From: an uncultured Thermoanaerobaculia bacterium
GTDB lineage: Bacteria > Acidobacteriota > Thermoanaerobaculia > Multivoradales > JAGPDF01
Length of the DNA stretch: 64,000 bases
Direction of reading: 5' to 3'
Assembly (NCBI GenBank): GCA_964471955.1
Contig: CAYYIK010000007.1
Span: 2,729 to 66,728 of the forward strand
Below the pieces are notes generated by a model. That model was not told the DNA's origin. It did no database searches and worked only from the letters and a program-made list of their open reading frames with translations. A program made the translations under genes and the position numbers. Of the stretch, positions 7,591 through 59,532 are shown piece after piece; position 1 is the stretch's first letter, and every line of letters begins with the position of its first letter.

Positions 7591-9219
7591 TCAATTCGCC
7601 GCCACCTCCGACCAGCGCAGCAGGTCGCCACGCTCGAAGCCGTCGCGGAAGAGACCCAGCGCGTAGAAGACGTTCACGGCGCCGGCGTTCTCGACCGCTC
7701 CGGCGTCCTCGTCCGGCGCGCCGACGGCGAGATCTTCGAACCCGTTGCCGTCGAAGTCGCCGGCGGCGAGGGCGGTGCCGAGCCGGTCCCCCGCCTCGGG
7801 AGTGCCGGGAGCCGTGCCGGCCTGGTTGAGCTCTACGTGGAACAGCGGCGCGCCCGCGGCCCGGCCGGTGAACGCGAAGGCGGAACCGGCGGCGTTCTGC
7901 CCGGCGACGTCGACGCCGTATCCGCCGACGACGAGGTCCGCCGTGGGGCCGGCATCGAATCTCCCGGCCGCCACCGCGGATCCGAAGTGATCGAAGCCGG
8001 CCGGCGAGCTTCCGGTGTCGGTTCGCTGGATCTTCCAGGCGAAGGTCGGCTCGAGGCCGCCGCCGGCGCCGCGCAGGACGTGGACCGATCCGGCGCTCGG
8101 CACGATGGCGGGCGCCTCGATGTCCTCGTAGAGCGAGCCCACCGCGAGGTCGTCCCGGCCGTCGCCGTTGAAATCCGCCGCCACCAGAGAGAAGCCGAAC
8201 CAGTCCTCGGCCTCCACCTCGGCCGGCACCGCCTGGCTCTGGGTGACGAAGCGCGCGCGGCTCGCACTCAGGCCGAGGCCGGTTCCGAAGATCACGGACA
8301 CGGCGCCGGCGTCCTCGAGGACGCCGATGTCCTCGCGCGGCGAAGCCACCGCCAGGTCGTCGTGCCCGTCGCCATCGAAGTCGCCCGCCGCGAGCCGCCA
8401 ACCGAAGCCGTCACCGGCCTCCTCGATCGACAGGTTGAGGTCCGCCTGGACCCAGATCTGGTCCGCCACCGGCGCGAAGTCGGGCGACAGGCCCGACGGC
8501 GACCCGTAGAGGACGTTGACGGCCCCCGAGTCGGCGACCGCACCGACGTCCTCGCCCGGTACGCCGATGGCAAGGTCGACGAAAGCGTCGCCGTTGAAGT
8601 TGCCCGCCGCCAGGGAGCGGCCGAATCCGTCCTCCGACTCGGCGACTCCCGCGACGCCCCCGGCGCCCTGGTGCCAGAGCTGGCTGCCGGCGGCGGTGAT
8701 CCCGGAGAGACCGCCGTGGAGCACCAGCACGGCGCCCCCGCTGTACGCCGTGCCGCCGGAACCGGGGACGTTGCGCCCGGGGATCCCCACCGCGAGGTCG
8801 TCGAAGCCGTCGTCGTCGAAGTCTCCGGCCACCAGCGCCGTGCCGGCCAGGTCCTCCCACTCGCTCGGACCGTGGGCGGTCCAGTCGATCGCCCACGTCT
8901 CCGACCCGCTCGGGTCGAGACCCGAGGCCAGCCCGTAGACGACCGTGACCTGCCCCCCCATCGAAGCCCCGGCCAGGACGGTCTCGCCCGGGGCCGCGAT
9001 CGCCAGGTCGTCGAAGCCGTCGCCGTTGAAGTCTCCGACCGCGAGCTCCCGCCCGAACAGATCGCCGGCCTCCGCGCCGTCCGGAACGCCACCCGCCCCC
9101 TGTTCCAGAATCTGTGCCCCGGCCAGCCCGAGCTGCGCGTGAATCGACGTGGAAAAGGCGAGCGCGCCCGCCAGCGAGAGGACGGCCGCCGGCCGCCCGA
9201 TCGATCGATCGAAACCCAT
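7591..9219 (-). CDS. Secreted FG-GAP/integrin-alpha-like repeat protein carrying the C-terminal GFExGD-W tag
   Basis: The start at ATG 9219 is preceded by AAGGGGGA (SD); the track ORF extends to 9315. Signal peptide MGFDRSIGRPAAVLSLAGALAFSTSIHAQ. There are at least 7 repeats of the type GDFNGDGFDDLAIAAPGE. The protein ends LFRDGFERGDLLRWSEVAAN. Confidence 0.88.
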   Translation of the reverse strand: MGFDRSIGRPAAVLSLAGALAFSTSIHAQLGLAGAQILEQGAGGVPDGAEAGDLFGRELAVGDFNGDGFDDLAIAAPGETVLAGASMGGQVTVVYGLASGLDPSGSETWAIDWTAHGPSEWEDLAGTALVAGDFDDDGFDDLAVGIPGRNVPGSGGTAYSGGAVLVLHGGLSGITAAGSQLWHQGAGGVAGVAESEDGFGRSLAAGNFNGDAFVDLAIGVPGEDVGAVADSGAVNVLYGSPSGLSPDFAPVADQIWVQADLNLSIEEAGDGFGWRLAAGDFDGDGHDDLAVASPREDIGVLEDAGAVSVIFGTGLGLSASRARFVTQSQAVPAEVEAEDWFGFSLVAADFNGDGRDDLAVGSLYEDIEAPAIVPSAGSVHVLRGAGGGLEPTFAWKIQRTDTGSSPAGFDHFGSAVAAGRFDAGPTADLVVGGYGVDVAGQNAAGSAFAFTGRAAGAPLFHVELNQAGTAPGTPEAGDRLGTALAAGDFDGNGFEDLAVGAPDEDAGAVENAGAVNVFYALGLFRDGFERGDLLRWSEVAAN

Positions 9220-9332
9220 GAGTTCCCCCTTTCGCCGCGACGGGTCGTGCCCGTCCCTCGCTTGCATCGCGAAAAGGGGAGAGACTGCGACAGTGCCATT
9301 CGGGGCGGCCTCCACGGCGCCGGACAGAGCGC

Positions 9333-9361
9333 GGGGCGACCCCGCGCCGCGGAGTCGCCCC
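9333..9361 (-). terminator. Hairpin downstream of the M16 peptidase gene (candidate terminator)
   Basis: GGGGCGAC (9333-9340) pairs with GTCGCCCC (9354-9361) around a 13-nt loop. It sits about 40 nt after the M16 stop on the minus strand and has no U tract. Confidence 0.3.
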
Positions 9362-9399
9362 GGGTGAGGCCGTCGACCGGCCGGCAGCCGCCGGCGAAC

Positions 9400-12159
9400 T
9401 CACTCGACGACGTTGCCCTCGTCGTCGAGCACGACGACCTCGCCGAGCTCACGCAGGCCGGCCTCGATCTTCGCCCGGTCGCCGACGACCAGGATCGCCG
9501 CGGCCTCCGGCTTCGCCCAGCGGTCAGCGGCGGCGCGCACCTGGTCGAGGGTGAGGGTCGCCAGCGCGTCGGCGGCCTCCTGCAGCTCACTCATCGGCAG
9601 CCCCTTGACCCACAGGTCGCCCACCTGCTGGGCGACGCGGCCGTACGCCTCGAACTGCTGCGCGTAGCCGCGCTGCTTGCGCTGACGCGCGCCCTCGAAC
9701 TCCTCGGGGCTGATCGGCCTCTCCCCGGCGAGACCGTCGAGCTCGCTGCGGAATTCGACGACCGACTCCTTCGTCTTGTCGGTCTGCACGCCGCCGCCGG
9801 CGTTCCAGAAGCCGCCGTGGCGGTACTGGCCGAGCTGCGAGAAGACGCCGTAGGAGTACCCCTTGTCTTCGCGCAGGTTGAGGTTGAGGCGGGTGCCGAA
9901 GCCGCCGCCGCCCCACACCGCGTCGGCGAGGTCGAGCGCATGGCGATCCTGCGTGCCGACCGGAGGCGCCGGCAGGAACTCGGCGACCACGGACTGCGCC
10001 GAGTCCTGGCGATCGACCAGGTAGATACGGCCGGCCGCCGCCGGCGCCGCCGGCGGGATGGCGATCTCGGGCGCGGCGCCGCCGCTCCAGCCGCCGAACT
10101 CGCGCTCCGCCAGGGCGAGCGCCTCGTCGAGCGAGACGTCGCCGACGAAGACGAGCGCCGAGCTTCCGGGACGCCAGCGCTCGGCGTGGAACGCGGCGAG
10201 GTCGTCGCGCGTGATGCCTTCGACGGTCGACGGAAGCCCCTGGGCCGGCCGGCCGTACGGGTGCCGGCGCCCGAAGGCGAGGATGCCGCGGACCCGGGCG
10301 GCGACGGCGTTGCCGTTTTTCGCCTGCTGGGCGAGCGCATCGAGGTGCCGCTGGCGCTCGCGGTCGAACTCGCTCTGCGGATAGACCGGGTTGCGGATCA
10401 CGTCGGCGACGATTCCGAGGGCCGCCGGCAGGTTGCGTTCGAGCACCTCGAAGGAGAGCGTGGAAGCCTCGCGCCCGGCGGCGCCGGTGAGCGACGTGCC
10501 GAGGTCGCCGAGCTCCTGCTCGATCTCGAGCGCCGTGCGGCTCGTCGTACCGAGGTCGATCATGGTCAGCGCCAGATGAGCGACCCCCTCCCTGCCGGCC
10601 GGGTCGGCGACGACGCCGGCGCGGGTGGTGAAGGTGACGGCGACCTTCGGCAGGTCGGCCCGCTCGACGACGAAGACCTCCAGTCCGTTGGCGAGGCGAC
10701 CCGCCGCGACGTCCGGCGCATCGAACGTCTTGTCCGCGCCGAGGTCGGGGATGATCGAGCGATCGATCGCCCCCGCCTCGGGCCGGCCCGACGTCTCGGG
10801 GTGGAAGCGCAGGGCGAGCCGGCGCGGCGTCGCGAGCCAGCGCGTCGCAGTCTCCCGGATGCTCTCGGGCGTCACCGCGGCGTAGCGCGAAAGATCCCAC
10901 TCGAAGCGGTCCGGATCACCGAGGAAGGTGTTGTACTGGTTGAGCAGGTCGGACTTGCCGCCGAAACCGCCGATCCGCTCGAGCCCCGAGACGAAGTTGA
11001 ACTCGTGCTTGACCCGGGCGCGCTCGAGTTCGGCGGCGGTCGGACCCTCCGCGGCGAGGCGGGCGATCTCGGCGACGATGCCCCCCTCGACCTCGGACAG
11101 CTCCACGCCGGGGCGCGCCGTGCCGATGACGACGAAGGCACCGGCAATCTCCTGCGAGATCTGGAAGGCGGAGACCGACGAGGCGAGCTGTCGGTCGTAA
11201 ACCAGGGCGCGCTGCAGGCGCGAGGAGAGCCCGTCGGCGAGGATTCCGGCGATCAGGTCGAGCTCGGCGTCGCCCGCCTCGTAGAACGGCGGGCTCGGCC
11301 AGGCCAGATAGACGCGCTCCTGCGGCACCCGGTCGGCGACCTCGATCACCTTCTCGCCGGGCAGCTCGGGGATCCAGCGCGCCGGCCGCGCCAGCGCCGG
11401 GCCGGGCGGAATCGGCCCGAAGTACTTCTCGACCAGGCGCTTCGCCTCGGCCGGGTCGAAGTCGCCGGCGATCACCAGCGAGAGGTTGTTGGGCGTGTAA
11501 TAGGTGCGGAAGAACTCCTTGACGTCGTCGAGCGTCGCCGCCGAAAGGTCGGCCATGCTGCCGATCACCGACCAGGAGTACGGGTGGCCGGCCGGGAAGA
11601 GATTCTCGGCGAGCAGCTCGAACCAGCGGCCGTAGGGCTGGTTCTCGAGCCCCTGCCGGCGCTCGTTCTTGACCACATCGCGCTGGTTGTCGAGCTTGGC
11701 GTCGTCGGTGACGTCGAGCAGGGTCGCCAGGCGGTCGGACTCGAGCCAGAGCAGGTTCTCGAGATTCGCCGAGGGGACGGTCGCGAAGTAGTTGGTGCGG
11801 TCAGTGTTCGTGGTGCCGTTGACGCCCCCCTCGAAGAGGTTGGCGCCGGCCCGCTCGACGTAGGCGAAGTACTCCTCCTTCGCGTTGGCCGAGCCCTGGA
11901 ACATCATGTGCTCGAAGAGATGGGCGAAACCGGTGCGGCCGGGCTTCTCGTTCTTCGAGCCGACGTGGAACCACTGGTTGACGTGGACCACCGGCAGCTT
12001 GCGGTCGACGTGCAGGATCACCTGCAGCCCGTTGGGCAGCGCGTACTTCTCGAACTCGATCTTCGGCACGTCGGGGGTCCCGGCAGCCGGGGCGGCCTGG
12101 ACGGCGGCCAGCGGCGCGAGACCGAGGCTCAGGGTGAGGGCGAATGCGGCGGTTCTCAA
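9400..12159 (-). CDS. M16 (pitrilysin/insulinase) family zinc peptidase, tandem double module, secreted
   Basis: 919 aa. Signal peptide MRTAAFALTLSLGLAPLAAVQA. The inverted zinc motif H-x-x-E-H appears in FAHLFEHMMFQGS. A second M16-like half follows. Confidence 0.9.
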   Translation of the reverse strand: MRTAAFALTLSLGLAPLAAVQAAPAAGTPDVPKIEFEKYALPNGLQVILHVDRKLPVVHVNQWFHVGSKNEKPGRTGFAHLFEHMMFQGSANAKEEYFAYVERAGANLFEGGVNGTTNTDRTNYFATVPSANLENLLWLESDRLATLLDVTDDAKLDNQRDVVKNERRQGLENQPYGRWFELLAENLFPAGHPYSWSVIGSMADLSAATLDDVKEFFRTYYTPNNLSLVIAGDFDPAEAKRLVEKYFGPIPPGPALARPARWIPELPGEKVIEVADRVPQERVYLAWPSPPFYEAGDAELDLIAGILADGLSSRLQRALVYDRQLASSVSAFQISQEIAGAFVVIGTARPGVELSEVEGGIVAEIARLAAEGPTAAELERARVKHEFNFVSGLERIGGFGGKSDLLNQYNTFLGDPDRFEWDLSRYAAVTPESIRETATRWLATPRRLALRFHPETSGRPEAGAIDRSIIPDLGADKTFDAPDVAAGRLANGLEVFVVERADLPKVAVTFTTRAGVVADPAGREGVAHLALTMIDLGTTSRTALEIEQELGDLGTSLTGAAGREASTLSFEVLERNLPAALGIVADVIRNPVYPQSEFDRERQRHLDALAQQAKNGNAVAARVRGILAFGRRHPYGRPAQGLPSTVEGITRDDLAAFHAERWRPGSSALVFVGDVSLDEALALAEREFGGWSGGAAPEIAIPPAAPAAAGRIYLVDRQDSAQSVVAEFLPAPPVGTQDRHALDLADAVWGGGGFGTRLNLNLREDKGYSYGVFSQLGQYRHGGFWNAGGGVQTDKTKESVVEFRSELDGLAGERPISPEEFEGARQRKQRGYAQQFEAYGRVAQQVGDLWVKGLPMSELQEAADALATLTLDQVRAAADRWAKPEAAAILVVGDRAKIEAGLRELGEVVVLDDEGNVVE

Positions 12160-12286
12160 GGCGGAGTCCTCCCGGGAAGTGGTCCAGCAGAATACGCGGA
12201 AAGGTCGCCCCGGGTTGCGTCGGGAGGGATCTCTCCGAGCACGGGCGCTGCGGATTCCCGCCGCCCGCTGCTATCCTCGTCCGGCC

Positions 12287-14353
12287 TTGCGTCCCCTTCG
12301 CCCCGCTCTCGCCCTGGCGTTGCTGCTCTTCGCCGCGCCGGTCTTCGCCGCGCTCCCGGAGCACGCCGAGCGGGTGGTCGACTACGACATCGAGGTGCGG
12401 CTCGATGCCGAGAAGCACGCGCTGACCGGCACGCAGCGACTGACCTGGCGCAACCCGTCGGACGATGCCGTCCCCGACCTCTGGTTCCATCTCTACCTGA
12501 ACGCCTTCCGCAACAGCGAGAGCACCTTCTTCCGCGAGTCCGGCGGCCAGCTGCGCAGCGATCGGACGGTGCAGGACAACTGGGGGTGGATCGACGTCAC
12601 CGCCCTGCGCCTGGCCAGCGGCGCGGACCTGCTGCCGGCGCTGACTTTCGAGGCACCGGACGACGGCAACCCCGAAGACCGCACGGTGGCGCGCGTCGTG
12701 CTCCCCGAGCCGGTCGCCCCGCGCGGCGAGATCACGCTCGAGATCGAGTTCCACGCCGTGCTGCCGCGCGTCTATGCGCGCACCGGTCACGCCGGCGACT
12801 TCCACATGATCGGCCAGTGGTTCCCCAAACTCGGCGTCTACGAGCCGGCCGGCATGCGCGGGCGCCAGACCGGCGGCTGGAATTGCCATCAATTCCATGC
12901 CCACTCCGAGTTCTACGCCGATTACGGCCGTTTCCGGGTCGCCATGACCGCGCCGGCCGACTTCGTCCACGGCGCCACGGGCCGCCGAATCGAGGTGCGC
13001 GACAATCCGGACGGCACGCGGACCTGGGTGCACGAGCAGGAAGACGTGCACGACTTCGCCTGGACCGTCGATCCGCGCTACGTCGAGGTGGTCGATCGCT
13101 TTGTCGCCGCCTCGGACGTGTCGGCCGCCGACCTCGCCGCAGCCGCCGCGCTGCTCGACCGGCCGGCCGAGGAGCTGCACCTCTCCGACGTCGAGATCCG
13201 CCTGCTGCTGCAGCCCGAGCACCGGGCGCAGGCCGATCGGCACCTGAGGGCGGCGAAGCTCGCCCTGCGCTGGTACGGGCTCGCCTACGGCCGCTACCCC
13301 TACCCGACCCTGACCATCGTCGACCCGCCGGCGCACGCCGGCGGCGCCGCCGGCATGGAGTACCCGACGCTGATCACCGCCGGGACCTCGATCGCGGTCG
13401 GGCGCGGGCCGTTCGCCCGCGTCCGGCTTCCCGAGATCGTCACCGTGCACGAGTTCGGCCACCAGTACTGGTACGGCCTGGTGGGCAGCAACGAGTTCGA
13501 GGAGTCCTGGCTCGACGAAGGGTTCACCACCTATTCGACCGAGCGCGCGCTGGCGGCCGGCTATGGCGAGGCGACCGCCAACGCCGAGCTGCCCGGCGGC
13601 CTGCGCATCGGCGCCTTCGACATGGCGCGCATGCAGAACGGCCCGGACCAGCGCTTCGACCGCATCCGCACGCCGTCCTGGGGCTTCTCGCGCTCGGGCG
13701 CCTACGGTTTCAACTCGTACGGCCGGCCGGCACTCGTCCTGCGCACCCTCGACGGCCTGCTCGGCGAGGCGACGATGGCGCGGGCCCTGCGCACCTACCA
13801 CGAGCGCTGGCGCTTCCGGCACCCGCGCTCGGAGGACTTCTATGCCGTGGTCGAGGAGGTCTCCGGGCGCGATCTCGACGACTTCTTCGCCCAGGTCGTC
13901 GAAGGCCCCGGCGTCTTCGATCCCGCGGTCGACCGGCTGCGGCACGAGATGGTCCGCACGCCGCGCGGCCGGATCGAACGCGGCGGCGTCGTGACGACGG
14001 TCGACGAGGCGATGGCGCGGCTCGAGGACGAGGCGGCGGAGCTCGACGTCCGCTCGATCGTCGAGCTGCGTCACCTCGGCGAGGTGCGCCTGCCGGTCGA
14101 GGTCGAGCTGCGCTACGACGACGACACCACCGAGCGGCGCACCTGGCAGGGTGAGGCGCGCTGGGTGCGCTGGGAAATCGTCGATCCGCGGCGGGTCGTC
14201 GAGGTCGTCCTCGATCCCGACCGCAAGCTGGCGCTCGACGCCAGCCGGCTCAACAACGCGCGACGCGAGGAGCCGGACCGTCGCGCCGCCGCACTCTGGT
14301 CGCTCCGCCTGCTGGCGTGGACACAGCGCCTGATGGGGATGGTCGGCCTGTGA
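12287..14353 (+). CDS. M1 family metallopeptidase (aminopeptidase N-like), secreted
   Basis: Motifs GMEYP (a GAMEN variant) and HEFGHQYWYGLVGSNEFEESWLDEG (HExxH-x18-E). The start is uncertain. TTG at 12287 gives a clean signal peptide (M)RPLRPALALALLLFAAPVFAA. In-frame GTG 12180 and TTG 12216 are alternatives. Confidence 0.82.
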   Translation: MRPLRPALALALLLFAAPVFAALPEHAERVVDYDIEVRLDAEKHALTGTQRLTWRNPSDDAVPDLWFHLYLNAFRNSESTFFRESGGQLRSDRTVQDNWGWIDVTALRLASGADLLPALTFEAPDDGNPEDRTVARVVLPEPVAPRGEITLEIEFHAVLPRVYARTGHAGDFHMIGQWFPKLGVYEPAGMRGRQTGGWNCHQFHAHSEFYADYGRFRVAMTAPADFVHGATGRRIEVRDNPDGTRTWVHEQEDVHDFAWTVDPRYVEVVDRFVAASDVSAADLAAAAALLDRPAEELHLSDVEIRLLLQPEHRAQADRHLRAAKLALRWYGLAYGRYPYPTLTIVDPPAHAGGAAGMEYPTLITAGTSIAVGRGPFARVRLPEIVTVHEFGHQYWYGLVGSNEFEESWLDEGFTTYSTERALAAGYGEATANAELPGGLRIGAFDMARMQNGPDQRFDRIRTPSWGFSRSGAYGFNSYGRPALVLRTLDGLLGEATMARALRTYHERWRFRHPRSEDFYAVVEEVSGRDLDDFFAQVVEGPGVFDPAVDRLRHEMVRTPRGRIERGGVVTTVDEAMARLEDEAAELDVRSIVELRHLGEVRLPVEVELRYDDDTTERRTWQGEARWVRWEIVDPRRVVEVVLDPDRKLALDASRLNNARREEPDRRAAALWSLRLLAWTQRLMGMVGL

Positions 14354-15237: not shown

Positions 15238-15246
15238 GCAGCTCCC

Positions 15247-15996
15247 TCAGGGAAGCGAGCCCGACCAGTGCGTGGTATCTCCGGTCTCGAAACCGTCGGC
15301 GAAGATGTCCGCCGTGCAGTAGAGAATCCGCACGTCGTCGAGATACCAGCCCATCCGGTTGACCACCGTGGTGGCGTGCAGCCTGAATTCGATGTCGATC
15401 GCAGGCATGCCGGCGAACGCGGAGAGATCCACCAGCTGCAGCTGCCAGTCGGGCGTCGGCGTGGCGTCCGGCACGAAGTACTGGCTCACCCCTTCGACGA
15501 AGACGTCGGCGCGATCGAAGGTCATGAAGACCTCGTACCAGTGGGCCCATTCGAGCGCGATCGGCGCCTGCAACGTGCTGAAGTCGAAGCTCTGCGACAG
15601 CGAGCTGTCCTGGCCGCTGTTCTGGTAGCAGCCGTCGAGATTCGTCCCCATGACGGCCGCGCCGTTGTACACCCCGGAGGGCTCGGGGCGCGGCGTGGTG
15701 TCGCACAGCTCGTAGACGCCCGTCGTCACCCCGCCGCGCTCCCAGTCGCCGAATCCGCTCTCGACCCAGCCCCCTTCGTCGACTTCGAAATCGGCGGCGT
15801 GGAACTCCGCGACACCCGTGCCCGGCGGGCAGACCATCCCCACCCCGTTCGCCAGGGCCGCCGGGGCGGCGGGTGACCGCCGGGCGCGCTGGTCGGCGAT
15901 CATCTCCTCGATCGGTGAGTCGGCGGCCAGAGGGAGCGGCAGCAATGCCGCCAGACAGAGGGGTGCGATCCACTTCGCGTTGCGAAAAGTGACCAT
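15247..15996 (-). CDS. Secreted hypothetical protein carrying the C-terminal GFExGD-W tag
   Basis: 249 aa. Signal peptide MVTFRNAKWIAPLCLAALLPLPLAA. The body looks like a jelly-roll fold (GWYLDDVRI). The protein ends IFADGFETGDTTHWSGSLP. Confidence 0.75.
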   Translation of the reverse strand: MVTFRNAKWIAPLCLAALLPLPLAADSPIEEMIADQRARRSPAAPAALANGVGMVCPPGTGVAEFHAADFEVDEGGWVESGFGDWERGGVTTGVYELCDTTPRPEPSGVYNGAAVMGTNLDGCYQNSGQDSSLSQSFDFSTLQAPIALEWAHWYEVFMTFDRADVFVEGVSQYFVPDATPTPDWQLQLVDLSAFAGMPAIDIEFRLHATTVVNRMGWYLDDVRILYCTADIFADGFETGDTTHWSGSLP

Positions 15997-16164
15997 GCGA
16001 CCTCCTTCCGGGGCCGGGCGCCACCGCCTTGCCTCGCGAGCCGATCGCGACCGGCGCTGTTCGGAACTGCGCCGAATCTAGGCCCTTCTCCTCGCCGCGT
16101 CAAACCGGGCGCGGATGCTACGATCGCGCCGTCCCGGCGGGCCTTCTCCCGCCGCGGAGGGACC

Positions 16165-17841
16165 ATGACCCGAGAGCGCGAAACGCTGGAGATGGACGTC
16201 CTCTTCGTCGGCGCCGGGCCGGCGAGCCTCGCCGGGGCCTGTCACCTGGCCCGGTTGCTCAAAGCCCACAACGCGCACGCCGCGACGCCGGTCGAACTGA
16301 CCCTCGCGGTGCTCGAGAAGGGCGCCGAGGTCGGTGCCCACGGCTTCTCCGGAGCGATCGTCGACCCGCGCGGGTTCCGCGAGCTGTTTCCCGAGAAGTT
16401 CGACCAGATCCCCTTCGAGGCCGAGGTGGGCGCCGAGCACCTCTGGTGGCTCACCGAGAGGCGCGCCCGCTCGCTGCCCGAGCCACCGCCGATGCAGAAC
16501 CACGGCAGCTACGTCGCGTCGCTCGGCCGGCTGGTCAAGTGGATGGCGAAGGAGGCCGAGGCGCTCGGCGTCGACGTCTTCTGCGAGTTTCCGGGCCGCG
16601 AGCTGCTGATGGAAGGCGACCGGGTCGCCGGCGTACGCACCGGGGATCGCGGCGTCGGCAAGGACGGGCGGCCGAAGCCGAACTACGAGCCCGGGGTCGA
16701 CATCCGGGCCGGCATCACCCTGCTCGGTGAGGGGCCGCGCGGCACGCTCGCCAAGCAGCTCGACGCCCGTCTCGACCTGTCGGCGGACGCCAATCCGCAG
16801 GTCTACGCCATCGGCATCAAGGAGGTCTGGGAGCTTCCCAGGGGGCGCTTCGAGGCCGGCGACATCTGGCACACCATGGGCTGGCCGCTGTGGCCCGACC
16901 TGTTCGGCGGCGGCTTCCTCTACGGCATGCAGGACGACCTGCTGATCACCGGCCTGGTCGTCGGGCTCGACGCCGAGAACCCGTGGACCGACCCGCACCT
17001 CGAGTTCCAGCGCTACAAGACCCACCCGGCGATCGCCTCCCTGCTCGAGAACGGGAAGATGGCGTACTACGGCGCCAAGGCCATCCCCGAGGGGGGGTAC
17101 TGGGCGATGCCGCGACTCGGCGGCGACGGCTTCTGCCTGATCGGCGATTCGGGCGGCTTCGTCGACGGCCAGCGGCTCAAGGGGATCCACCTGGCGATCA
17201 AGTCCGGCATGCTGGCCGCCGAGGCGATCTTCGCCGCCGCCGTCTCCGGCCGGCCGCTCGCCTCGGCGGGCACCGACTATCCGGCCCGCTTCGAAGCGAG
17301 CTGGGCGAAGCAGGAGTTGTGGAAGAGCCGCAATTTCCATCAGGGGTTCGAGCGCGGCGGTCTCGACGCGCTGATCAACGCCGGCCTCGGCGTGCTGACC
17401 GGCGGCCGCGGCTGGGGGGTCGTCGACCGCCTGCACTCGGTGGCCGGGCACGAGCGCCTGCTGCGCCTCGACAGCGAGCGCAGCGACCTGCGCCCCGCTC
17501 CGCCGGTGCCGGTCGACGGCGAGCTGACCTTCGACCGCCTGGCCGACGTCTACAACTCCGGAACCGCGCACGAGGAGGACCAGCCGGTGCATCTCCTGGT
17601 GGCCGACCTGTCGATCTGCGTCGACCGCTGCGTGCGCGAGTTCGCCAACCCCTGCACCCGCTTCTGCCCGGCCGCGGTCTACGAGATGGTCGACGATCCG
17701 ACGCAGCCGCGCGGCAAACGGCTGCAGATCAACGCCAGCAACTGCGTCCACTGCAAGACGTGCGACATCGCCGATCCGTACCAGATCATCACCTGGGTGC
17801 CGCCCGAGGGGGGCGGCGGGCCGAACTACGGTCGCATGTAG
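16165..17841 (+). CDS. Electron-transfer flavoprotein:ubiquinone oxidoreductase (ETF-QO)
   Basis: 558 aa. N-terminal FAD fold DVLFVGAGPASLAGA. The C-terminal 4Fe-4S region is CTRFCPAAVYEM...NCVHCKTCDIADPYQIITWVPPEGGGGPNY. SD GGAGGGACC precedes the ATG. Confidence 0.93.
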   Translation: MTRERETLEMDVLFVGAGPASLAGACHLARLLKAHNAHAATPVELTLAVLEKGAEVGAHGFSGAIVDPRGFRELFPEKFDQIPFEAEVGAEHLWWLTERRARSLPEPPPMQNHGSYVASLGRLVKWMAKEAEALGVDVFCEFPGRELLMEGDRVAGVRTGDRGVGKDGRPKPNYEPGVDIRAGITLLGEGPRGTLAKQLDARLDLSADANPQVYAIGIKEVWELPRGRFEAGDIWHTMGWPLWPDLFGGGFLYGMQDDLLITGLVVGLDAENPWTDPHLEFQRYKTHPAIASLLENGKMAYYGAKAIPEGGYWAMPRLGGDGFCLIGDSGGFVDGQRLKGIHLAIKSGMLAAEAIFAAAVSGRPLASAGTDYPARFEASWAKQELWKSRNFHQGFERGGLDALINAGLGVLTGGRGWGVVDRLHSVAGHERLLRLDSERSDLRPAPPVPVDGELTFDRLADVYNSGTAHEEDQPVHLLVADLSICVDRCVREFANPCTRFCPAAVYEMVDDPTQPRGKRLQINASNCVHCKTCDIADPYQIITWVPPEGGGGPNYGRM

Positions 17842-17873
17842 CCCTCCGCGGCCGGCCAGAAGGGAACGACTTC

Positions 17874-20099
17874 ATGCGCGCGACGACGAAATCACGGTGG
17901 ATACCCGGGATCCTGCTGGCGCTCTGCGCCACGACGCTGCCCCTGCCGGCCGCGGCCGCGACGGGCGAGACGCCGGGTGGCGAAGTCCCGTTCGAGGCGC
18001 TGTTCGATCCGGCCCTGATGCCTCGTCTGACGGGCCTCGCGTGGAATGACGACGGCAGCCGCTTTGCCGGAGTCTGGCGCGACGGCAAGCGGCGGGGAGT
18101 CCGGATCTTCGACGGCGCGACCGGCGCCGATCTGGTGACGGCCTTCGCCGACGAACTGATCGAGGGGCCGCCGGTGCCCGACGCCACGGCGGCGGCCGCC
18201 ACGCTCGGCAAGCTCTCCGGCTTCGCCTTCCGCCCCGGCTCGAACGAGCTGCTGCTGGTCGCCGACGACGACCTCTTCCTCTGGGACCCGGCGGGGCGTA
18301 CGGTCCGCCGCCTCACTCGAGGCCCCGCCGAGGAGGAGGGGGCGACCTTCTCCCCCGACGGCCGTCGCCTCGCCTTCTCGCGCGATGCCGATCTCTGGGT
18401 GCTCGACCTGGCCAGCGGCGGTGAGCGGCGGCTGACCGAGGACGGCCGCCCCGACGAGATCCTCAACGGCACGACCGACTGGGTCTACTGGGAGGAGATC
18501 TGGGGGCGCGACGCGACGGCCCTCTGGTGGTCGCCGGACTCGCGCTCGCTCGCCTACTACCGCTTCGACGAGACCGGCGTGCCGACCCATCCGCTCCTTG
18601 CGGAACGCGAAGTGACAGCGAAGGTGACGCTGCAGCGCTATCCCAAAGCCGGCGATCCGAATCCCGACGTCGCCGTGCGCGTCGTCGAAGTCGACAGCGG
18701 CGCGATCGTCGAGCTGGCGACCGGCGAGGCGCCGGGCGACTACCTGGCGCGCGTGCACTGGGCGAGCGACCCGGGTGCCGTGGCGGTCGAGCGACTCGAT
18801 CGCGACCAGACGCGGCTCGACCTGCTGCACTGCCGGGCCGACAGCGGCAGCTGCGTCGAGCTGGCGAGCCAGCAGGCCACGACCTGGGTCAATCTCTCCA
18901 AGGACTACCGCCCGCTCGACGACGGTGGCTTCCTGTGGAGCCACGAGGGGGGCGGCTGGCGGACGCTGCACCGCCACGACCGGCTCGGACGCAGCCGCGC
19001 CGATCTCCTGCCGTCCGGCTGGGCGCTCGAAGAGGTCGTGCAGGTGCTTTCCGAACGCGGCGAAGTCATCGTCACGGCACACCGCACGTCCGCGCTCGGA
19101 GCGCTCGGCCGCAGCGTGCTGGCGCTCGACCTGACGGGACGCAAGGCGCCTCGCCTGCTGGCCGACGGACCGGGTTGGCATGGCGCACATGTGGCGGCCA
19201 CCGGGACCTGGATCCACAGCTGGAGCGACGCCCATACCCCGACCGAGCTGCGCCTGCGCGACGCCGAGGGCGGGGAACTCGCTCTGCTGCCCGGCGGCGT
19301 CGAACTGCCCGCCGCGCTCGCCGCCCTGCCGCGCTGGGAGGTGACGACGATCCCGGCGGCCTCCGGAGCTGCGCTGCCGGCGCGTTTCATCCCGCCGGCC
19401 GGGGCGCCGGACGAGCGCCACCCGGCGATCACCTACCACTACGGCGGCCCCGCCTCCCAGGTGGTGATCGATCGCTGGGAGGGGCCGCGCGGGCTCTGGC
19501 ACCGCTGGATGGCGAGCCGCGGCTATCTCGTCCTGTCGCTCGACAACGAGGCCTCGCGCTTCTTCGGCAAGCCCGGCGAGGATCGGCTGCACCGCCGCTT
19601 CGGCGAGCTCGAGCTGGCCGGCCAGCTCGACGGCGTGCGCTGGCTCGGCAATCGGTCCGACGTCGACGTGCAGCGCATCGGCCTCTGGGGGTGGTCCGGC
19701 GGCGGATCGAACACGCTCTACTCGGTGCTCCACCGACCCGGTACCTGGAAGGCGGCGGTGGCCGGCGCGCCGGTGACCGACTGGCGCCTCTACGACTCGA
19801 TCTGGACCGAGCGCTACCTCGACACGCCGCAGGACAACCCCGACGGCTACCGCGACTCGTCGCCGATCAGCGCCGCCGAGAGCCTCGCCGACGCGGTGCT
19901 CCTCGTCCACGGAACCGGCGACGACAACGTCCACCCGCAGAACTCGATCGCCCTGATGGCGAAGTGGATCGCCGCCGGCAAGCGCTTCGAGGAGGCGATC
20001 TACCCGGACGAAAAGCACGGCTTCTCACCCGCGGCGGGCCGCCACTTCTATCGCCGGATGACCGACTTCTTCGACCACCAGCTGCAATCGGCGCGCTGA
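17874..20099 (+). CDS. S9 family serine peptidase (dipeptidyl-peptidase IV-like), secreted
   Basis: ATG at 17874 in track frame 16890..20099; 741 aa. Signal peptide MRATTKSRWIPGILLALCATTLPLPAAAA. WWSPDSRSLAYYRFDETGV marks the beta-propeller part. Triad motifs: GLWGWSGGGS (Ser), VHGTGDDNVH (Asp), DEKHGF (His). Confidence 0.9.
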   Translation: MRATTKSRWIPGILLALCATTLPLPAAAATGETPGGEVPFEALFDPALMPRLTGLAWNDDGSRFAGVWRDGKRRGVRIFDGATGADLVTAFADELIEGPPVPDATAAAATLGKLSGFAFRPGSNELLLVADDDLFLWDPAGRTVRRLTRGPAEEEGATFSPDGRRLAFSRDADLWVLDLASGGERRLTEDGRPDEILNGTTDWVYWEEIWGRDATALWWSPDSRSLAYYRFDETGVPTHPLLAEREVTAKVTLQRYPKAGDPNPDVAVRVVEVDSGAIVELATGEAPGDYLARVHWASDPGAVAVERLDRDQTRLDLLHCRADSGSCVELASQQATTWVNLSKDYRPLDDGGFLWSHEGGGWRTLHRHDRLGRSRADLLPSGWALEEVVQVLSERGEVIVTAHRTSALGALGRSVLALDLTGRKAPRLLADGPGWHGAHVAATGTWIHSWSDAHTPTELRLRDAEGGELALLPGGVELPAALAALPRWEVTTIPAASGAALPARFIPPAGAPDERHPAITYHYGGPASQVVIDRWEGPRGLWHRWMASRGYLVLSLDNEASRFFGKPGEDRLHRRFGELELAGQLDGVRWLGNRSDVDVQRIGLWGWSGGGSNTLYSVLHRPGTWKAAVAGAPVTDWRLYDSIWTERYLDTPQDNPDGYRDSSPISAAESLADAVLLVHGTGDDNVHPQNSIALMAKWIAAGKRFEEAIYPDEKHGFSPAAGRHFYRRMTDFFDHQLQSAR

Positions 20100-21148
20100 G
20101 CGGCCGGCGTCGCGAGCCAGTCCCGCAGGTCGCCGGCGACTTCGGCCGCGAGGGGTCGCCGGGCGGGGTCGGAGCGCAGGCAGGATCGCACCAGGCGACC
20201 GAATCGGCGGTCGACGAGCTGGCCGGCCGGCGGACGCTCCGCCGCGAGACCCGAGAGGACGAGGGCGAGCGGGCGGCCGGAACGGTTCCACAGTCGGCTT
20301 CCCGTGGCCGCCTCGAAGAGCAGCAGGCCGACGCCGTAGATGTCGGCCGGCGCTCCGACCGGCTGGCCGCGCAGCTGCTCCGGTGCCGCGTAGTCGAGCG
20401 TGAAGACCCACAGGTCGCTGCTCGAAGCGCGATCCCCTCCTTCGGCGATCAGGGCGGCGATGCCGAAGTCGAGCAGGTGCGCCCGTCCGTCCGCCCCGAC
20501 GATCACGTTGGAAGGCTTCACGTCGCGGTGCGCGACACCGTGGCCGTGCGCCCAGGCGAGCGCTTCGCAGACCTCCGCGATCCTCTCGACTCGCGCGTCG
20601 AAGTCCGACTCGGCGCGCGCCATCCAGGTCCGCAGGCTCTCGCCTTCGACCCACTCGGTGACCAGGTAGGGGCGCCCCGTGGGCGTCTCGCCGGCGCCGA
20701 GGAAACTCACGATGCCCGGATGAGAGAGCGACGCGAGAATCCTGCCTTCGCCGAGGAAGCGCCGCGCCAGGGCGCCGCCGGAAAACTCCCGCCGCAACAG
20801 CTTGAGCGCCACGGGCGGCCCCCCGACCCGCGGCTCGGCCCGGAAGACCTCGGCCGCCGCCCCGGCGCCGACCCGCGCGAGCCGGACGTAGCCGGGGACC
20901 TCCGGCGTGGCCCCGGCCGCGCCCGGGTCCGGCGACTCCGATCGCGTCACCAGGGCGAGCAGATTCGCGGCGTCGAGGTCGAGAACGGACCGGTCGGCGC
21001 CGAGCAGCGACGCCAGCCTTTCGGCGAGCGGGCGGTCCGCGGTGGCCAGCTCGGCCAGCCGGCGCCGGCGCGCTGCCGTTTCGAGATCCAGCAGCTCGTC
21101 GAGGAGCGGTTCGATCGCGCTCCAGGGAGGGCCGGGATCCGGGGTCAT
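20048..21148 (-). CDS. Ser/Thr protein kinase, short soluble form, translationally coupled to the ECF sigma factor
   Basis: The ATG at 21148 overlaps the sigma-factor stop (ATGA). 366 aa. Motifs VALKLL (Lys), HRDVKPSNVIV, DFGIA, YAAPEQ. No hydrophobic segment follows the kinase domain. The 3' end overlaps the convergent S9 peptidase gene by 52 nt. Confidence 0.88.
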   Translation of the reverse strand: MTPDPGPPWSAIEPLLDELLDLETAARRRRLAELATADRPLAERLASLLGADRSVLDLDAANLLALVTRSESPDPGAAGATPEVPGYVRLARVGAGAAAEVFRAEPRVGGPPVALKLLRREFSGGALARRFLGEGRILASLSHPGIVSFLGAGETPTGRPYLVTEWVEGESLRTWMARAESDFDARVERIAEVCEALAWAHGHGVAHRDVKPSNVIVGADGRAHLLDFGIAALIAEGGDRASSSDLWVFTLDYAAPEQLRGQPVGAPADIYGVGLLLFEAATGSRLWNRSGRPLALVLSGLAAERPPAGQLVDRRFGRLVRSCLRSDPARRPLAAEVAGDLRDWLATPAAQRADCSWWSKKSVIRR

Positions 21149-21723
21149 GCGGGATATCCGAGGCGTTCGAGCTCGAGGCGGAGGAAGGCGCGGGCCTTGC
21201 GCCAGTCGCGGCGAACCGTCCGCTCGCCGCGCCCGATCACCAGCCCGATCTCGCACTCGGTCATGCCGCCGAAGAAGCGCATCTCGACGATGCGCGCCAG
21301 CTCGGGCGCCGCCTTCTCGAGCTCGCCGAGAGCGGCGTCGACCGCCAGCAGCTGCCCCGCCTGCCAGGTCGCCGGATCGGCGATCTCTTCGGGCAGCGGA
21401 ACGTGGTGCGCGTCGCCGCCGCGCTTCCGGCGGTGGAGCCGCTCGGCTTCCGAGAGCAGGACCTGCCGCATGGCGCGCGCCGCCAGGCTGAAGAAGTGCA
21501 CCCGATCGACCGGAGTCAGGCGCGACGTCCCGCTCACCCGCAGGTAGAACTCGTGGACCAGCGCCGTCGTGTCGAGCGACGAACTGCCGCGAATCCGCCG
21601 CAGCTGGGCGCGCGCCAGCCGGGCCAGCTCGCCGTAGACGCGTTCGAAGACGCGGTCGAGGCTGGCACGGTCGCCGCCTCGCGCCGCCGCGAGCAGCAGA
21701 GTGAGATCCTCTTCGGTCTCCAT
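21145..21723 (-). CDS. ECF-type RNA polymerase sigma-70 family factor
   Basis: Region 2 (LVHEFYLRV) and region 4 HTH (MTECEIGLVIGRGERTVRRDWRKARAFL). ATG 21723 (METEEDL...) is preferred; the track ORF allows a GTG at 21804. Confidence 0.88.
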   Translation of the reverse strand: METEEDLTLLLAAARGGDRASLDRVFERVYGELARLARAQLRRIRGSSSLDTTALVHEFYLRVSGTSRLTPVDRVHFFSLAARAMRQVLLSEAERLHRRKRGGDAHHVPLPEEIADPATWQAGQLLAVDAALGELEKAAPELARIVEMRFFGGMTECEIGLVIGRGERTVRRDWRKARAFLRLELERLGYPA

Positions 21724-21724
21724 C

Positions 21725-21768
21725 GGGTGGGTCGCCGGCGCCCATGTTAGCGCCGGAGCGACCCACCC
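21725..21768 (-). terminator. Strong GC-rich hairpin between the S8 peptidase stop and the ECF sigma start (terminator/attenuator or translational-control candidate)
   Basis: An 11-bp stem (21725-21735 with 21758-21768), a 2-nt bulge, a 6-bp stem (21736-21741 with 21750-21755) and an 8-nt loop. On the minus strand, the arm nearest the start codon ends 1 nt before ATG 21723. Confidence 0.45.
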
Positions 21769-21782
21769 GCGGATGTCCTGCG

Positions 21783-24599
21783 TCACAGGGCGGTGGCCGA
21801 CCACTCCAGCAGATCGCCGCCTTCGAAGTCGTCCGAGAAGAGCGATGCCGGCAGGACGATCACCTGGAAGGAGACCGCGCCACCGGTGAGATTCGCCACT
21901 ACCAGGCCGAGCCAGTCACCGAGAGCCGCGGGATTGTTCAGGCCCCCCCGCTCGGTCGCGGTCCCGGAGCTGGAACGGTTGCGCGCCAGCACGTACTCGC
22001 TCTTGCGCTTCGTCCAGCTGGCGGAGTTCGCCGGATCGGAGCGGTATCCGTAGATGGCGAGGTCGGCGCTGCCGCTCACCGGGACGACGCGGACACGGCG
22101 ATGGCTCGCCGCCGGAACCCAGACGTCGAAGACCGAGAGGACGTTCGCGGCTGCGTGCGTCACCGGCCCGAGCGTGATCGGTGAGCTGGAGCTTCCGGCT
22201 CCCAGGCCGAGGTTGGTGAACTGCAGATTGTAGCCATCCGTGCCCGCGAACCGGTAGACGCGGTAGTGCTCCTGGGTCGTCGTCCGGTGATTGCCGTCCA
22301 CCGCGACGAAGTCGATGGCGCTGCCGGCGTAGGTCGACGTCTCGTTGACCGTCCGCACGCCGGGGTTGACGAACAGCGAGTGACTGGCGAGCTCGAGGTC
22401 GTGATCCGAGGTTCCCGCCGGACGGATTCCAACGGCGCGCCAGTAGTTGTTCGGCGACCAGTCGGCCGGAAAGACCGCGAGGTGGGTGCCCGTCGGCGCG
22501 GGCACCTGATCGGTATAGCCGACCTCGGGCACGATCCGGTACTCGCCGCGCCACCAGCCGGCGCCGAGCCAGGTGCCGCCCGAGCTCCAGTCGGACGAGA
22601 AGAGCGAGGCGCGGAAGCGGTAGGTCTCCGAGGCTGGAGCGATGAAGTCGATGATCTCGTAGGCGTTGCGGACGCTCGACGAGCAGGTGATCACCGTCGT
22701 GTTGTCGGCGCGATAGGCGCACAGGTCGATGTCGGCCGGCAGCGGGTCCGTGGTGTAGGCCGCGTTGGGGTTGGTCGACCAGGCGATGGCGAAGCGCACC
22801 CGCTCGCCCGCGTAGGCGTACTGCGAGTAGTTGATGGGGAACGTCGTCGTCGAACCGATGGACTGGACCGCCCAGTTGCCGCGCTCGGCCGAGGCCGCCG
22901 CCGCCGCGCCGACGATGCCACCCGCGCCGTCCTTGTCCGAAAGGCGCGTCGCCCCTTCGACGTTGTGGATCGCCGTCGCCATCAGCAGCGCTTTGACCGC
23001 CTCCGGGTCGTTCTCGATCGCCGGGTCGACTTCCATCACGTCGGCGGCGAGCGCCGTGACCATCGGTGCCGAGTAGCTGGTGCCGCTGCCGACGGGGCCG
23101 ATCCAGGGGCTGGAGGTCGTCGTGCTGGTGATCGAGGAGCCGACGCCGGCGATTTCGGGCTTCTCCTGCGTCCCGGTGCCGGCCGAGTTGTTCGGGTTGC
23201 CGAAGCTCGAGCAGTTCGACATCACGTCGCCGGTCCACGTCAGGCTGTCGAGGTCGTCGTAGTTGCCGACCGCCAGGATGTTGTGCCCCTTGGCGGGCGA
23301 GGTGACGTAGGTCGAGAAGTTGCCGCCGCACCCGTTGCCGAAGTTGCCCGCCGCAACGACCACCGTGTCGAAGTGGGAGCGCACGAAATAGTCCATCTGC
23401 CGATCGACACTCCAGAAGTTCGGGTTGTTGGCGCTGTCCCAGTACCAGCTGTTGTTGAGCACGCGGGCGTTGGACGACCCCCACTCCATCGCCGCCGACA
23501 TGACGCCGAAATCGGAGTAGCTGCCGTTGGCGCTGTGCAGGTCGACTTCGTCCGCCAGGCCGTGCTGCGTCGCGTCGGTGCTGCGCACCATGCCGCCCAC
23601 GGCGGTCGGATGGCTGGCGTAGGGCTGTCCGCAGGCGTAGCAGGCGGAGAGGGTGAGGAACGGATTGGCGAACGAGGCGCGCTCCCCCTCGGTGATCGAC
23701 ACCTCGACGCCCGTGCCGTCGTAGCCCACGTTGTTGGGCACCAGCATGTTCTGCGTCGGGCGCGCGTTGGCGAGCAGCGGGCCGCCCTGCCCCGAAGCGT
23801 CGTAGAGCGCGTCGATCTCGGGCCAGAAGGCGAGTTCCTCGAGGACCTCCCGGCGCCCTTCGAGCACGACGAGCGGGGAGAGCTCGCCGGCGAACGTGAT
23901 GTCGAGGTCGAGCGCCGTCACGCGGCCGAGGAAGTCGGCGCGCGCCGGCGCGATGAGCTCGCGGATCAGTCGCTGGCGCTCGGCGTCCTCGGCGCGCAGG
24001 GCCGCCTGGACCGCTTCGCGGTGCGCCTCGCGGCGCGGATCGACGATACGAAGATCGCCCGGCTCACCCTTGGAGAGCTCGGGGGCGGCGTCGGCGCGGG
24101 TCACCGGAGCGTCCGGATCCGGCTCGGCGGCCTCGCCCAGCGCGCTGCCGGCCTCGCGGCCGGTCGGCTTCGGAGCGAGTCGCTCGTCCGGCAGGGCCGA
24201 CAGGTCGACGGCGAGCCAGGCCGTGACGCGCAGGCGATCCGCCGGGCCGAGCTGGTCGAGGTGCCGGCGCAGGTCCGGGGTAACGGCGCCGTGGCGGGCC
24301 CGCCAGGCGTCTCCCGCCCGCCGGATCTCGGCGTAGCGGTCGACCACCCGCTCGCCGTCGAGCGCCACGCCGACGATCTCGCCGGTTGCCCGGTCGATCG
24401 CCTTGACGGTCTCGATCCGGCGGCCGTCGGCCAGCGTGTCGACGGTCGTCTCGATCTTCTCGATCGAGTCGGGATCCAGGCCCAGGGCGGCCGCCAGGCG
24501 ATCGCCGGCATCCTCCGCCCGGACGGGAGCCGCCAGGGGGAGCGCCCCCAGCAGCAATGAGGTGAGCAGTGCGGTTCTGATTCGACCGGAATTTCGCAT
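21783..24599 (-). CDS. Secreted subtilisin-like (S8 family) serine peptidase with long N- and C-terminal extensions and the C-terminal GFExGD-W tag
   Basis: 938 aa. SD GAGGAGGAATCG precedes the ATG. Signal peptide MRNSGRIRTALLTSLLLGALPLAAPVRA. Serine motif GTSYSAPMVTALAADV, His region ASHPTAVGG, and AAGNFGNG. The protein ends LFSDDFEGGDLLEWSATAL. The catalytic Asp could not be placed by eye. Confidence 0.78.
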   Translation of the reverse strand: MRNSGRIRTALLTSLLLGALPLAAPVRAEDAGDRLAAALGLDPDSIEKIETTVDTLADGRRIETVKAIDRATGEIVGVALDGERVVDRYAEIRRAGDAWRARHGAVTPDLRRHLDQLGPADRLRVTAWLAVDLSALPDERLAPKPTGREAGSALGEAAEPDPDAPVTRADAAPELSKGEPGDLRIVDPRREAHREAVQAALRAEDAERQRLIRELIAPARADFLGRVTALDLDITFAGELSPLVVLEGRREVLEELAFWPEIDALYDASGQGGPLLANARPTQNMLVPNNVGYDGTGVEVSITEGERASFANPFLTLSACYACGQPYASHPTAVGGMVRSTDATQHGLADEVDLHSANGSYSDFGVMSAAMEWGSSNARVLNNSWYWDSANNPNFWSVDRQMDYFVRSHFDTVVVAAGNFGNGCGGNFSTYVTSPAKGHNILAVGNYDDLDSLTWTGDVMSNCSSFGNPNNSAGTGTQEKPEIAGVGSSITSTTTSSPWIGPVGSGTSYSAPMVTALAADVMEVDPAIENDPEAVKALLMATAIHNVEGATRLSDKDGAGGIVGAAAAASAERGNWAVQSIGSTTTFPINYSQYAYAGERVRFAIAWSTNPNAAYTTDPLPADIDLCAYRADNTTVITCSSSVRNAYEIIDFIAPASETYRFRASLFSSDWSSGGTWLGAGWWRGEYRIVPEVGYTDQVPAPTGTHLAVFPADWSPNNYWRAVGIRPAGTSDHDLELASHSLFVNPGVRTVNETSTYAGSAIDFVAVDGNHRTTTQEHYRVYRFAGTDGYNLQFTNLGLGAGSSSSPITLGPVTHAAANVLSVFDVWVPAASHRRVRVVPVSGSADLAIYGYRSDPANSASWTKRKSEYVLARNRSSSGTATERGGLNNPAALGDWLGLVVANLTGGAVSFQVIVLPASLFSDDFEGGDLLEWSATAL

Positions 24600-59444: not shown

Positions 59445-59503
59445 AGAGACTCCGCAGGCGCGATACAAGCGTCACGCGACGGTTTCGTCGTGGCGCGCGC
59501 GGC

Positions 59504-59532
59504 TTGACGTGCGGAGAGCGACGCCGTACGGT
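59504..59532 (+). promoter_or_regulatory. Candidate sigma70-type promoter for the 59573 gene
   Basis: TTGACG (59504-59509), a 17-nt spacer, then TACGGT (59527-59532), about 40 nt upstream of ATG 59573 (SD GGAAGGGAG). Confidence 0.3.

Follow-up and report, generated by a model that had tools for sequence, protein, structure and literature searches.

A short C-terminal tail on unrelated exported proteins of Acidobacteriota, a candidate address tag

What could lead five unrelated exported proteins, encoded within 64 kb of a single bacterial contig, to end in nearly the same peptide? The question is posed by a 64,000-nucleotide stretch of DNA from an uncultured Thermoanaerobaculia bacterium (phylum Acidobacteriota; contig CAYYIK010000007.1), hereafter called the window, in which a tail of 18-19 residues closes five such proteins (Table 1). 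A preliminary description of the window had quoted three of these tails, pointed to two more between 56511 and 60208, and read the shared ending as a sorting signal. The three quoted peptides were recovered exactly; all are encoded on the minus strand and lead directly into a stop codon. The two further tails are real, the copy at 60146-60208 being a looser one. From the analysis presented here we lean modestly towards reading the tail as a modular tag for address or docking, 18-19 residues long, at the C-terminus of Sec-exported proteins, a reading that rests on sequence comparison and structure prediction.

Reduced to the minimal skeleton F-x3-F-x7-W, the motif has exactly five matches when the window is translated in all six frames, and every one of them sits 18-19 codons before a stop, closing open reading frames (ORFs) of 234-1178 codons. 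Because the G+C content of the window is 72% and long spurious ORFs are common, the stop distance of the motif was tested explicitly; only 1.4% of all its codon positions are so placed, which puts the chance of finding all five there at a p of about 5e-10. A stricter form of the motif had no match in 100 shuffles of the window. The tags share 53-76% nucleotide identity and encode identical residues with synonymous codons, so that their likeness is one of protein and a DNA repeat is excluded. Directly after the stop of each tag comes the next gene or a convergent one, which leaves no room for a hidden domain downstream. Both a DNA repeat and gene truncation were rejected on these two grounds. 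The residues that follow the motif in the five proteins are SEVAAN, SGSLP, SATAL, SAVVP and TAAATD.

The passengers were found to be unrelated by Pfam, AlphaFold2 and Foldseek, as had been proposed, and comprise FG-GAP, MAM-like, S8 peptidase, DUF11 and carbohydrate-binding module (CBM)-like proteins. Plausible Sec signal peptides could be read from the sequence of all five. The FG-GAP protein probably starts at M33 (about nt 9219), with the signal peptide MGFDRSIGRPAAVLSLAGALAFSTSIHA followed by Q, and homologous tagged FG-GAP genes occur in three further loci (L056, L104 and L110). For the 249-aa protein, the best Foldseek matches were the InhA2 MAM domain, meprin MAM and CBM35/22/27, with a weak Pfam match to InhA-like_MAM; it has no exact public record, its closest match being P0001 at 90% identity. 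The S8 protein is 100% identical to P0270, which a public Logan assembly has on a 5.4-kb contig. The best homologues that bear a label are from Thermoanaerobaculia-like MAGs (metagenome-assembled genomes), and DNA of the window matches such MAGs at 66-70%. The DUF11 protein probably starts with MLRPHP at about nt 59444 (signal peptide ...ATAWA/QD), and at its C-terminus it has a domain that shares 30% identity with a small tagged protein of another locus, L122. The small CBM-like protein, with a likely start MMPTGRVLSLL at about nt 59573 (signal peptide ...QLRA/AE), was assigned to no family in Pfam and NCBIfam scans. The tag had been placed on five of roughly a dozen exported proteins of the window; five is correct, and the exported proteins counted here are ten. 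The other five, which lack the tag, are two peptidases (M16 and M1), a PLD lipoprotein, a giant 1713-aa cadherin/immunoglobulin (Ig) protein and a phytase-like/EEP protein, the last corresponding to the nuclease of the preliminary description. An S9 peptidase that it also listed was not found in the window, either by Pfam on the called ORFs or by tblastn with the S9 peptidase of locus L121.

Beyond the window, the back-translated pattern F-x-D-G-F-E-x-G-D-x3-W was scanned against one genome per prokaryotic species, and at least 136 strict matches in at least 120 loci were obtained, an undercount insofar as looser tails that keep only F1, F5, W13 and the length escape the pattern. Among the 136 matches listed, a stop lies exactly 18 codons after the Phe in 69 and within 13-24 codons in about 105. 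This clustering has a p of about 1e-150 against uniform position in ORFs of about 550 codons, and bears out the C-terminal enrichment on which the earlier reading had been made to depend. The consensus is [LIV]F-A-D-G-F-E-S-G-D-T-S-A-W-S-x-T-V-P-COOH. Conservation extends to positions that the search pattern left free, namely S7 (52 of 69 tails), T10 (49), S14 (57), V17 (45) and the terminal P18 (58), and likewise to S11, A12 and the hydrophobic residue preceding F1. C-terminal copies number 109 among the matches listed, of which 93 are labelled Acidobacteriota, Thermoanaerobaculia, Holophagae or Multivoradales; the remaining 16 belong to MAGs that are unclassified or carry other labels, one of them Crocinitomicaceae. 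The matches listed from Chloroflexota, Actinomycetota, Armatimonadota, archaea and the candidate phyla radiation (CPR) are all internal or run past the end of the fetched locus. C-terminal copies are thus almost confined to Acidobacteriota (Thermoanaerobaculia and Holophagae).

Profile searches gave a similar picture. A tail-only profile, a 42-column alignment that collected short fragments, reached 45-60 bits and E-values down to 6e-11 against 5.8e9 proteins, and 107 of its 116 short-protein matches have the motif no more than 24 residues from the C-terminus. Searched exhaustively with a profile, 1.84 billion cluster representatives (50% identity) yielded 7,314 matches at E<=1e-3, a count that includes internal copies opening jelly-roll domains; the top list of this search leans to proteins with several internal copies, as their scores add up. 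Among its 120 newly listed top matches, 41 proteins have a single copy of the motif, which in 37 of them lies at the very C-terminal end. The tail is present in independent assemblies from NCBI, ENA, JGI and Logan.

Certain loci and proteins carry the tail in unusual density or form. Between 3.5 and 21.2 kb of L122 (ENA ERZ25039527 contig_66388), nine of 18 genes within 23 kb end with the tail or a loose variant of it. Two complete tags stand in tandem at the C-terminus, 21-25 residues apart, in P0174, P0176, P0182, P0185, P0195 and P0200, and the same arrangement is seen in P0213, P0218, P0225, P0239 and P0243. In P0162, P0164 and P0196 a mini-domain of about 70 residues, opened by the motif, precedes the tag. 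At L124 (GCA_035444205.1, DAOMOD010000009.1), from a MAG labelled Xanthomonadaceae, five of 16 neighbouring genes end in the first half of the tag only, at about 6948, 10720, 13802, 15427 and 19973. Their final residues are LELFSNGFE, AIFADGFEDP, DDDIFADGFEG, GPQIFSDGFE and PPDIFRNGFESG, each before a stop, in the pattern ...[IL]F-x-[DN]-G-F-E plus 0-3 residues. This is a short form of the tail outside Acidobacteriota, provided that the MAG label is correct.

The carriers are as varied elsewhere as in the window. Fifty-two Pfam families are represented among 75 carriers from the genome scan, including FG-GAP, InhA-like MAM, S8, M14, M28 and C25 peptidases, PAD_porph, beta-helices, BNR and multihaem cytochromes. 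By a crude heuristic, signal-peptide-like N-termini are present on 68 of 80 complete carriers (85%) versus 173 of 456 neighbouring ORFs (odds ratio 9.3, p 2e-15). In the AlphaFold2 model of the 249-aa protein, the core has a predicted local distance difference test (pLDDT) score of 80-96, and residues 235-249 fall below 50 and are not packed on the domain. The S8 model is alike, with residues 924-938 below 50 and unpacked behind beta-sandwich domains scoring 86-91. The diversity of the passengers, together with the unpacked tails of these two models, indicates that the tail is not part of the passenger folds.

The strongest indirect argument for an address tag comes from what occupies the same position in homologous proteins. 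The closest relatives of the MAM-like protein (P0001 and P0002) keep the tail. Homologues labelled Thermoanaerobaculia have DUF11 repeats and an IPTL-type tail in its place, others have PEP-CTERM tails or tails of a transmembrane (TM) helix plus Arg (TM+RRR), and P0026-P0030 end in ...YLPIIFK (for example HVLYLPIIFK). Among orthologues of the S8 protein, P0271-P0277 (58-67% identity) without exception retain the tail, in a family flavour, LFSDDFESGD..EW; two at 47-48% identity have the variant ..FESNST.AW..T.P; and most of the remainder (41-48% identity; P0279-P0306) end in ...[VL]Y[LM]P[LA][IV]x[RK], as in DLRVYLPLIRR. Two unrelated passengers thus swap lineage-specific tails, known sorting signals included. 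The truncation that the preliminary description had considered is not seen, since the orthologues do not extend into a further domain, and P0001, P0002 and P0271-P0277 all end in the tail. At L122 a Calx-beta protein with an IPTL-CTERM tail (21714-22859) adjoins the tagged cluster; with both endings in one locus, the tail is no mere substitute for the IPTL-CTERM system.

The YLP-type ending deserves separate mention. Few of the orthologues that bear it have source labels, and those labelled are Chloroflexi/Anaerolineae. It holds the same slot on the S8 and MAM-like passengers and is likewise short, with no full membrane helix; it differs in its unrelated sequence, hydrophobic and basic, and apparently in its lineage. 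This Chloroflexota-type ...[VL]Y[LM]P[LA][IV]x[RK](R/K)-COOH ending, of which we know of no description, may be a separate, undescribed address tag, and in its ...YLPLI[RK]-COOH form it is a possible parallel case to the acidobacterial tail.

Several C-terminal signals are established in bacteria, and the tail was compared with each. As with PEP-CTERM/exosortase, IPTL-CTERM, LPXTG/sortase, GlyGly-CTERM/rhombosortase and MYXO-CTERM/myxosortase, a short C-terminal region is shared by many unrelated carriers with signal peptides. Tripartite signals of this kind are defined by a motif, a hydrophobic transmembrane segment and an Arg-rich cluster (10.1101/2023.06.07.544157). Like them, the tail is limited in lineage and has many carriers per genome, spread round the chromosome; unlike them, it has no transmembrane segment, the protein ending five residues past W13, and no Arg/Lys cluster, and the neighbourhood surveys linked no sortase-like enzyme to it. 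Lacking both membrane helix and Arg cluster, it is not an exosortase-type signal. The C-terminal domain (CTD) of type IX secretion system (T9SS) cargo is, like the tail, a C-terminal non-membrane element on Sec-exported proteins, and the cargo is close, with C25, PAD_porph, M14 and S8 peptidases, adhesin repeats and beta-helices; the repertoire of carriers as a whole resembles T9SS or PEP-CTERM cargo. The T9SS CTD folds into an Ig-like domain some 70-100 residues long, in contrast to the 18-19 residues of the tail, which AlphaFold2 leaves unpacked at low confidence and which belongs to Acidobacteriota and not Bacteroidota. No Pfam or NCBIfam model of the T9SS CTD matched the five window proteins or the 75 other carriers. 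An outer-membrane-protein beta-signal, in which the last strand of a beta-barrel ends in an aromatic residue, usually Phe, was rejected, as the terminal residue is Pro (58 of 69) and the passengers are soluble folds and not barrels; a type I secretion signal, whose substrates have no N-terminal Sec signal peptide, was rejected on the Sec-type N-termini of five of five window carriers and 68 of 80 elsewhere. Donor-strand exchange (chaperone-usher, type V pilus) and cohesin-dockerin pairing offer an analogy of mechanism only, in that a terminal strand or module completes an acceptor in trans. In those systems the dockerin is a Ca2+-binding module of about 70 residues; for the tail no acceptor was identified, and its passengers are not pilin-like.

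The tail has relatives of another kind, which the preliminary description had not seen. In Chloroflexota, Actinomycetota, Armatimonadota, archaea and some Acidobacteriota, internal copies of the motif open complete jelly-roll domains of about 185 residues that end in ...YFDDV.V and often stand in tandem with a period of 185-290 residues. These domains give weak matches to CBM_4_9 (motif at model positions 1-3), Polysacc_lyase, Laminin_G_3 and 3-keto-disaccharide hydrolase. Isolated tails give weak matches only to the starts of domain models (for example NTTRR-F1, positions 5-22 of 155), and the weak profile matches taken together, with CBM_4_9 among the models whose first positions the tail aligns to, place it within model positions 1-22. 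Jelly rolls of CBM4_9/LamG/PF14099 type open with the same motif, F-x-D-G-F-E-x-G-D-x-S-x-W. Their opening-strand signature F-x-D-x-F-E...W is present in the tail, and the complete beta-sandwich that should follow it (about 130-190 residues) is absent. Relative to such domains the tagged proteins lack the remaining 165 or so residues, gain the ending S-x-T-V-P-COOH and carry the whole element behind many passengers that are not jelly rolls. Sequence homology ties the tail to the beta-hairpin with which a concanavalin-like jelly roll opens. Its likeness to the opening hairpin of a common domain suggests a docking or strand-complementation reading beside that of a sorting signal.

If the tail is an address tag, the signal peptide would be removed in the periplasm and the flexible tail would then be recognised in trans by a partner. 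As it has neither membrane helix nor basic cluster, recognition would have to be of a soluble peptide, not one by a membrane-embedded sortase or exosortase. The residues would fit an amphipathic beta-hairpin in which one strand bears F1 and F5 and its partner W13 and V17, and since the sequence is that of the first hairpin of a jelly roll, beta-strand augmentation onto an acceptor would be the most natural mode. Recognition would make the protein cross the outer membrane or settle on it, or would fix it to a surface or matrix component, with translocation, surface attachment or scaffold assembly as the result. A more specific proposal, which we put forward tentatively and hold at somewhat under even confidence, is that the tail is the substrate signal of an undescribed sorting or display system of Acidobacteriota that recognises a soluble jelly-roll-derived strand, probably by augmentation onto an outer-membrane or surface acceptor. 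It would then be a third design of C-terminal signal beside the sortase/exosortase and T9SS CTD types.

A number of observations weigh against an address tag. Clustering of the ORFs of the 120 loci yielded no candidate gene for recognition or processing, full annotation of the window showed no relevant machinery, and the unknown polytopic membrane proteins that lie beside tagged genes in three loci are mutually unrelated. Missing linked machinery says nothing either way, since PEP-CTERM and T9SS cargo, too, is typically scattered and has no linked enzyme. AlphaFold2 assigns the tail low confidence and no defined hairpin. The window tails leave the consensus at the very end (AAN, TAL, ATD), and these degenerate endings, with the short form at L124, make a strict need for a ...VP-COOH terminus doubtful and suggest that the core lies in the first strand. 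As the motif commonly opens a domain, the origin of the tail would be explained, with no sorting role, if that domain had been lost. No description of the tail, its localisation or cleavage included, was found in the open-access papers and preprints searched. Pfam and NCBIfam hold no model that matched it, as judged with whole proteins and isolated tails up to E=10. What holds of the earlier sorting-signal reading is that the element is modular and C-terminal, marks a subset of exported proteins and swaps slots with other endings; the neighbourhood surveys turned up no machinery to recognise it.

A narrower version of the address tag, concerned with assembly and not translocation, would have the tail stay on the mature protein as a permanent docking tag and insert as the missing first hairpin into an acceptor jelly roll of a surface or matrix scaffold. 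Homology to the first strands of CBM4_9/LamG/Polysacc_lyase-type domains argues for this version, the tandem duplicated tags suggest avidity, the short form retains the first strand only, and a terminal Pro would resist carboxypeptidases. It is nonetheless doubtful to us, as no acceptor devoid of a first strand was identified, the multi-repeat jelly-roll proteins found all own one, and the hairpin it calls for is not predicted by AlphaFold2.

The address tag presupposes a protein partner, and one alternative would dispense with it. The acidic stretch D-G-F-E-S-G-D could bind Ca2+ and/or polysaccharide or lipopolysaccharide (LPS), keeping enzymes in the capsule or exopolysaccharide (EPS) layer. 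D3, E6 and D9 are conserved and acidic with no basic residues beside them, the equivalent N-terminal strand of jelly-roll CBMs contributes to a structural Ca2+ site, and EPS-type glycosyltransferase (GT) clusters are found in the window and in related loci. We think this unlikely, because the invariant residues are the aromatic F1, F5 and W13 whereas D3, D9 and G4 vary in looser copies, and 18 residues would be very short for an autonomous lectin.

More improbable still is an intramolecular or quality-control element (a folding cap, a pro-segment, or a degron for periplasmic tail-specific PDZ proteases) that would govern maturation or turnover and not location. It would suit a free C-terminus of fixed length that is flexible in the models, and several carriers are peptidases. 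Against a fold-specific cap or inhibitor stand the 52 unrelated families, mostly non-enzymatic repeats. The last residue is Pro and the short-form endings vary (E, EG, ESG, EDP), and such a terminal Pro and varying ends are unlike known PDZ or Tsp ligands. Swapping with surface-anchor signals also suits location better than turnover.

A non-functional remnant, whether a truncated jelly roll, an artefact of assembly or gene calling, or a DNA-level repeat, is hardly credible and is contradicted by the results, for although a widespread domain has this motif as its first strand and both forms coexist in some genomes, the length is exactly 18 residues in 69 of 136 matches listed with conservation to the last residue, orthologues keep the tail down to 58% identity, conservation is at the protein level with no coding room downstream, and the tail recurs in the four independent sets of assemblies.

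The surroundings of the tagged genes offer few recurrent features. All-against-all clustering of ORFs gave, as the sole recurrent neighbours, pairs of an extracytoplasmic function (ECF) sigma factor (PF07638) and a Ser/Thr kinase-TPR protein, in 13 of 120 loci; this recurrence was judged consistent with the general abundance of such pairs in these genomes, with no specific link. Apart from these pairs, no family recurred in the flanks of 100 tagged genes; in 109 flanking ORFs there were 128 Pfam families, none with more than three members. In the window, such a sigma factor lies directly downstream of the S8 gene, and the kinase ORF and the 708-aa ORF that come after it may together be a split or frameshifted kinase-TPR gene. 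Separately, the minus strand from 49788 to 59468 is an operon-like row in which the stop of the DUF11 gene overlaps the start of the 1713-aa cadherin/Big_9 protein. Apart from the phage-tail-collar genes and the EPS-type cluster, the rest of the window holds metabolic genes, and no exosortase or PEP-CTERM gene was seen in it.

Table 1 Coordinates in the window of the C-terminal tails, the proteins that carry them and other features (a slash marks the end of a signal peptide)
Feature	Position	Strand	Remarks
C-terminal tail LFRDGFERGDLLRWSEVAAN + stop	7591..7653	-	Ends FG-GAP repeat protein; translation and motif scans
C-terminal tail IFADGFETGDTTHWSGSLP + stop	15247..15306	-	Ends 249-aa MAM-like protein; translation and motif scans
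C-terminal tail LFSDDFEGGDLLEWSATAL + stop	21783..21842	-	Ends S8 peptidase; translation and motif scans
C-terminal tail LFNDGFETGDTSRWSAVVP + stop	56511..56570	-	Ends DUF11-repeat protein; nearest of the five to the global consensus
Looser C-terminal tail IFGEGFEVGAVCRWTAAATD + stop	60146..60208	+	Keeps F1, F5, E6, G8, W13 and the stop distance
FG-GAP (integrin-like beta-propeller) exported protein	7591..9315 (longest ORF)	-	Pfam FG-GAP E 1e-53, 6 repeats
249-aa exported MAM/CBM-type beta-sandwich protein	15247..15996	-	Signal peptide ...LPLPLAA/DS; AlphaFold2 and Foldseek
938-aa exported subtilase	21783..24599	-	Pfam Peptidase_S8 E 3e-18; signal peptide ...LAAPVRA/ED
Exported protein, 4 DUF11 repeats and C-terminal CBM-like domain	56511..59468	-	Pfam DUF11 E 2.5e-46
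Small exported CBM-like protein	59504..60208	+	
PF07638 ECF sigma factor	21145-21804	-	Directly downstream of tagged S8 gene, slight overlap
Ser/Thr kinase ORF	stops at 20048	-	After sigma factor; ends right behind kinase domain
708-aa ORF	17892-20018	-	No Pfam match; follows kinase in another frame
1713-aa cadherin/Big_9 protein	51373-56514	-	Downstream of tagged DUF11 gene
Three tandem phage-tail-collar (PF07484/Gp10_C) genes	50836-51336, 50322-50825, 49788-50309	-	After 1713-aa gene
EPS/O-antigen-type cluster	about 31500-43000		GT1/GT4 glycosyltransferases 32812-34185, 34200-36146, 36456-37520, 37517-38662
Bac_transf priming transferase	39633-41189		Within EPS/O-antigen-type cluster

Acidobacteriota are among the most abundant bacteria of soils and sediments. 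Most of the lineages that bear the tail are known from metagenomes only, and how their peptidases, adhesins and cytochromes are exported and displayed is largely unknown. The tail likely belongs with the known class of C-terminal address tags of exported bacterial proteins, as a member with no prior description in the libraries and literature searched. As such it would supply a simple sequence rule for predicting the surface and secreted proteome of these organisms, and a concrete handle for tracing its machinery. If strand augmentation is true, it would also be a very small portable tag for display or secretion. More generally, it would mean that C-terminal address tags need not follow the design of motif, membrane helix and Arg cluster that current searches target.

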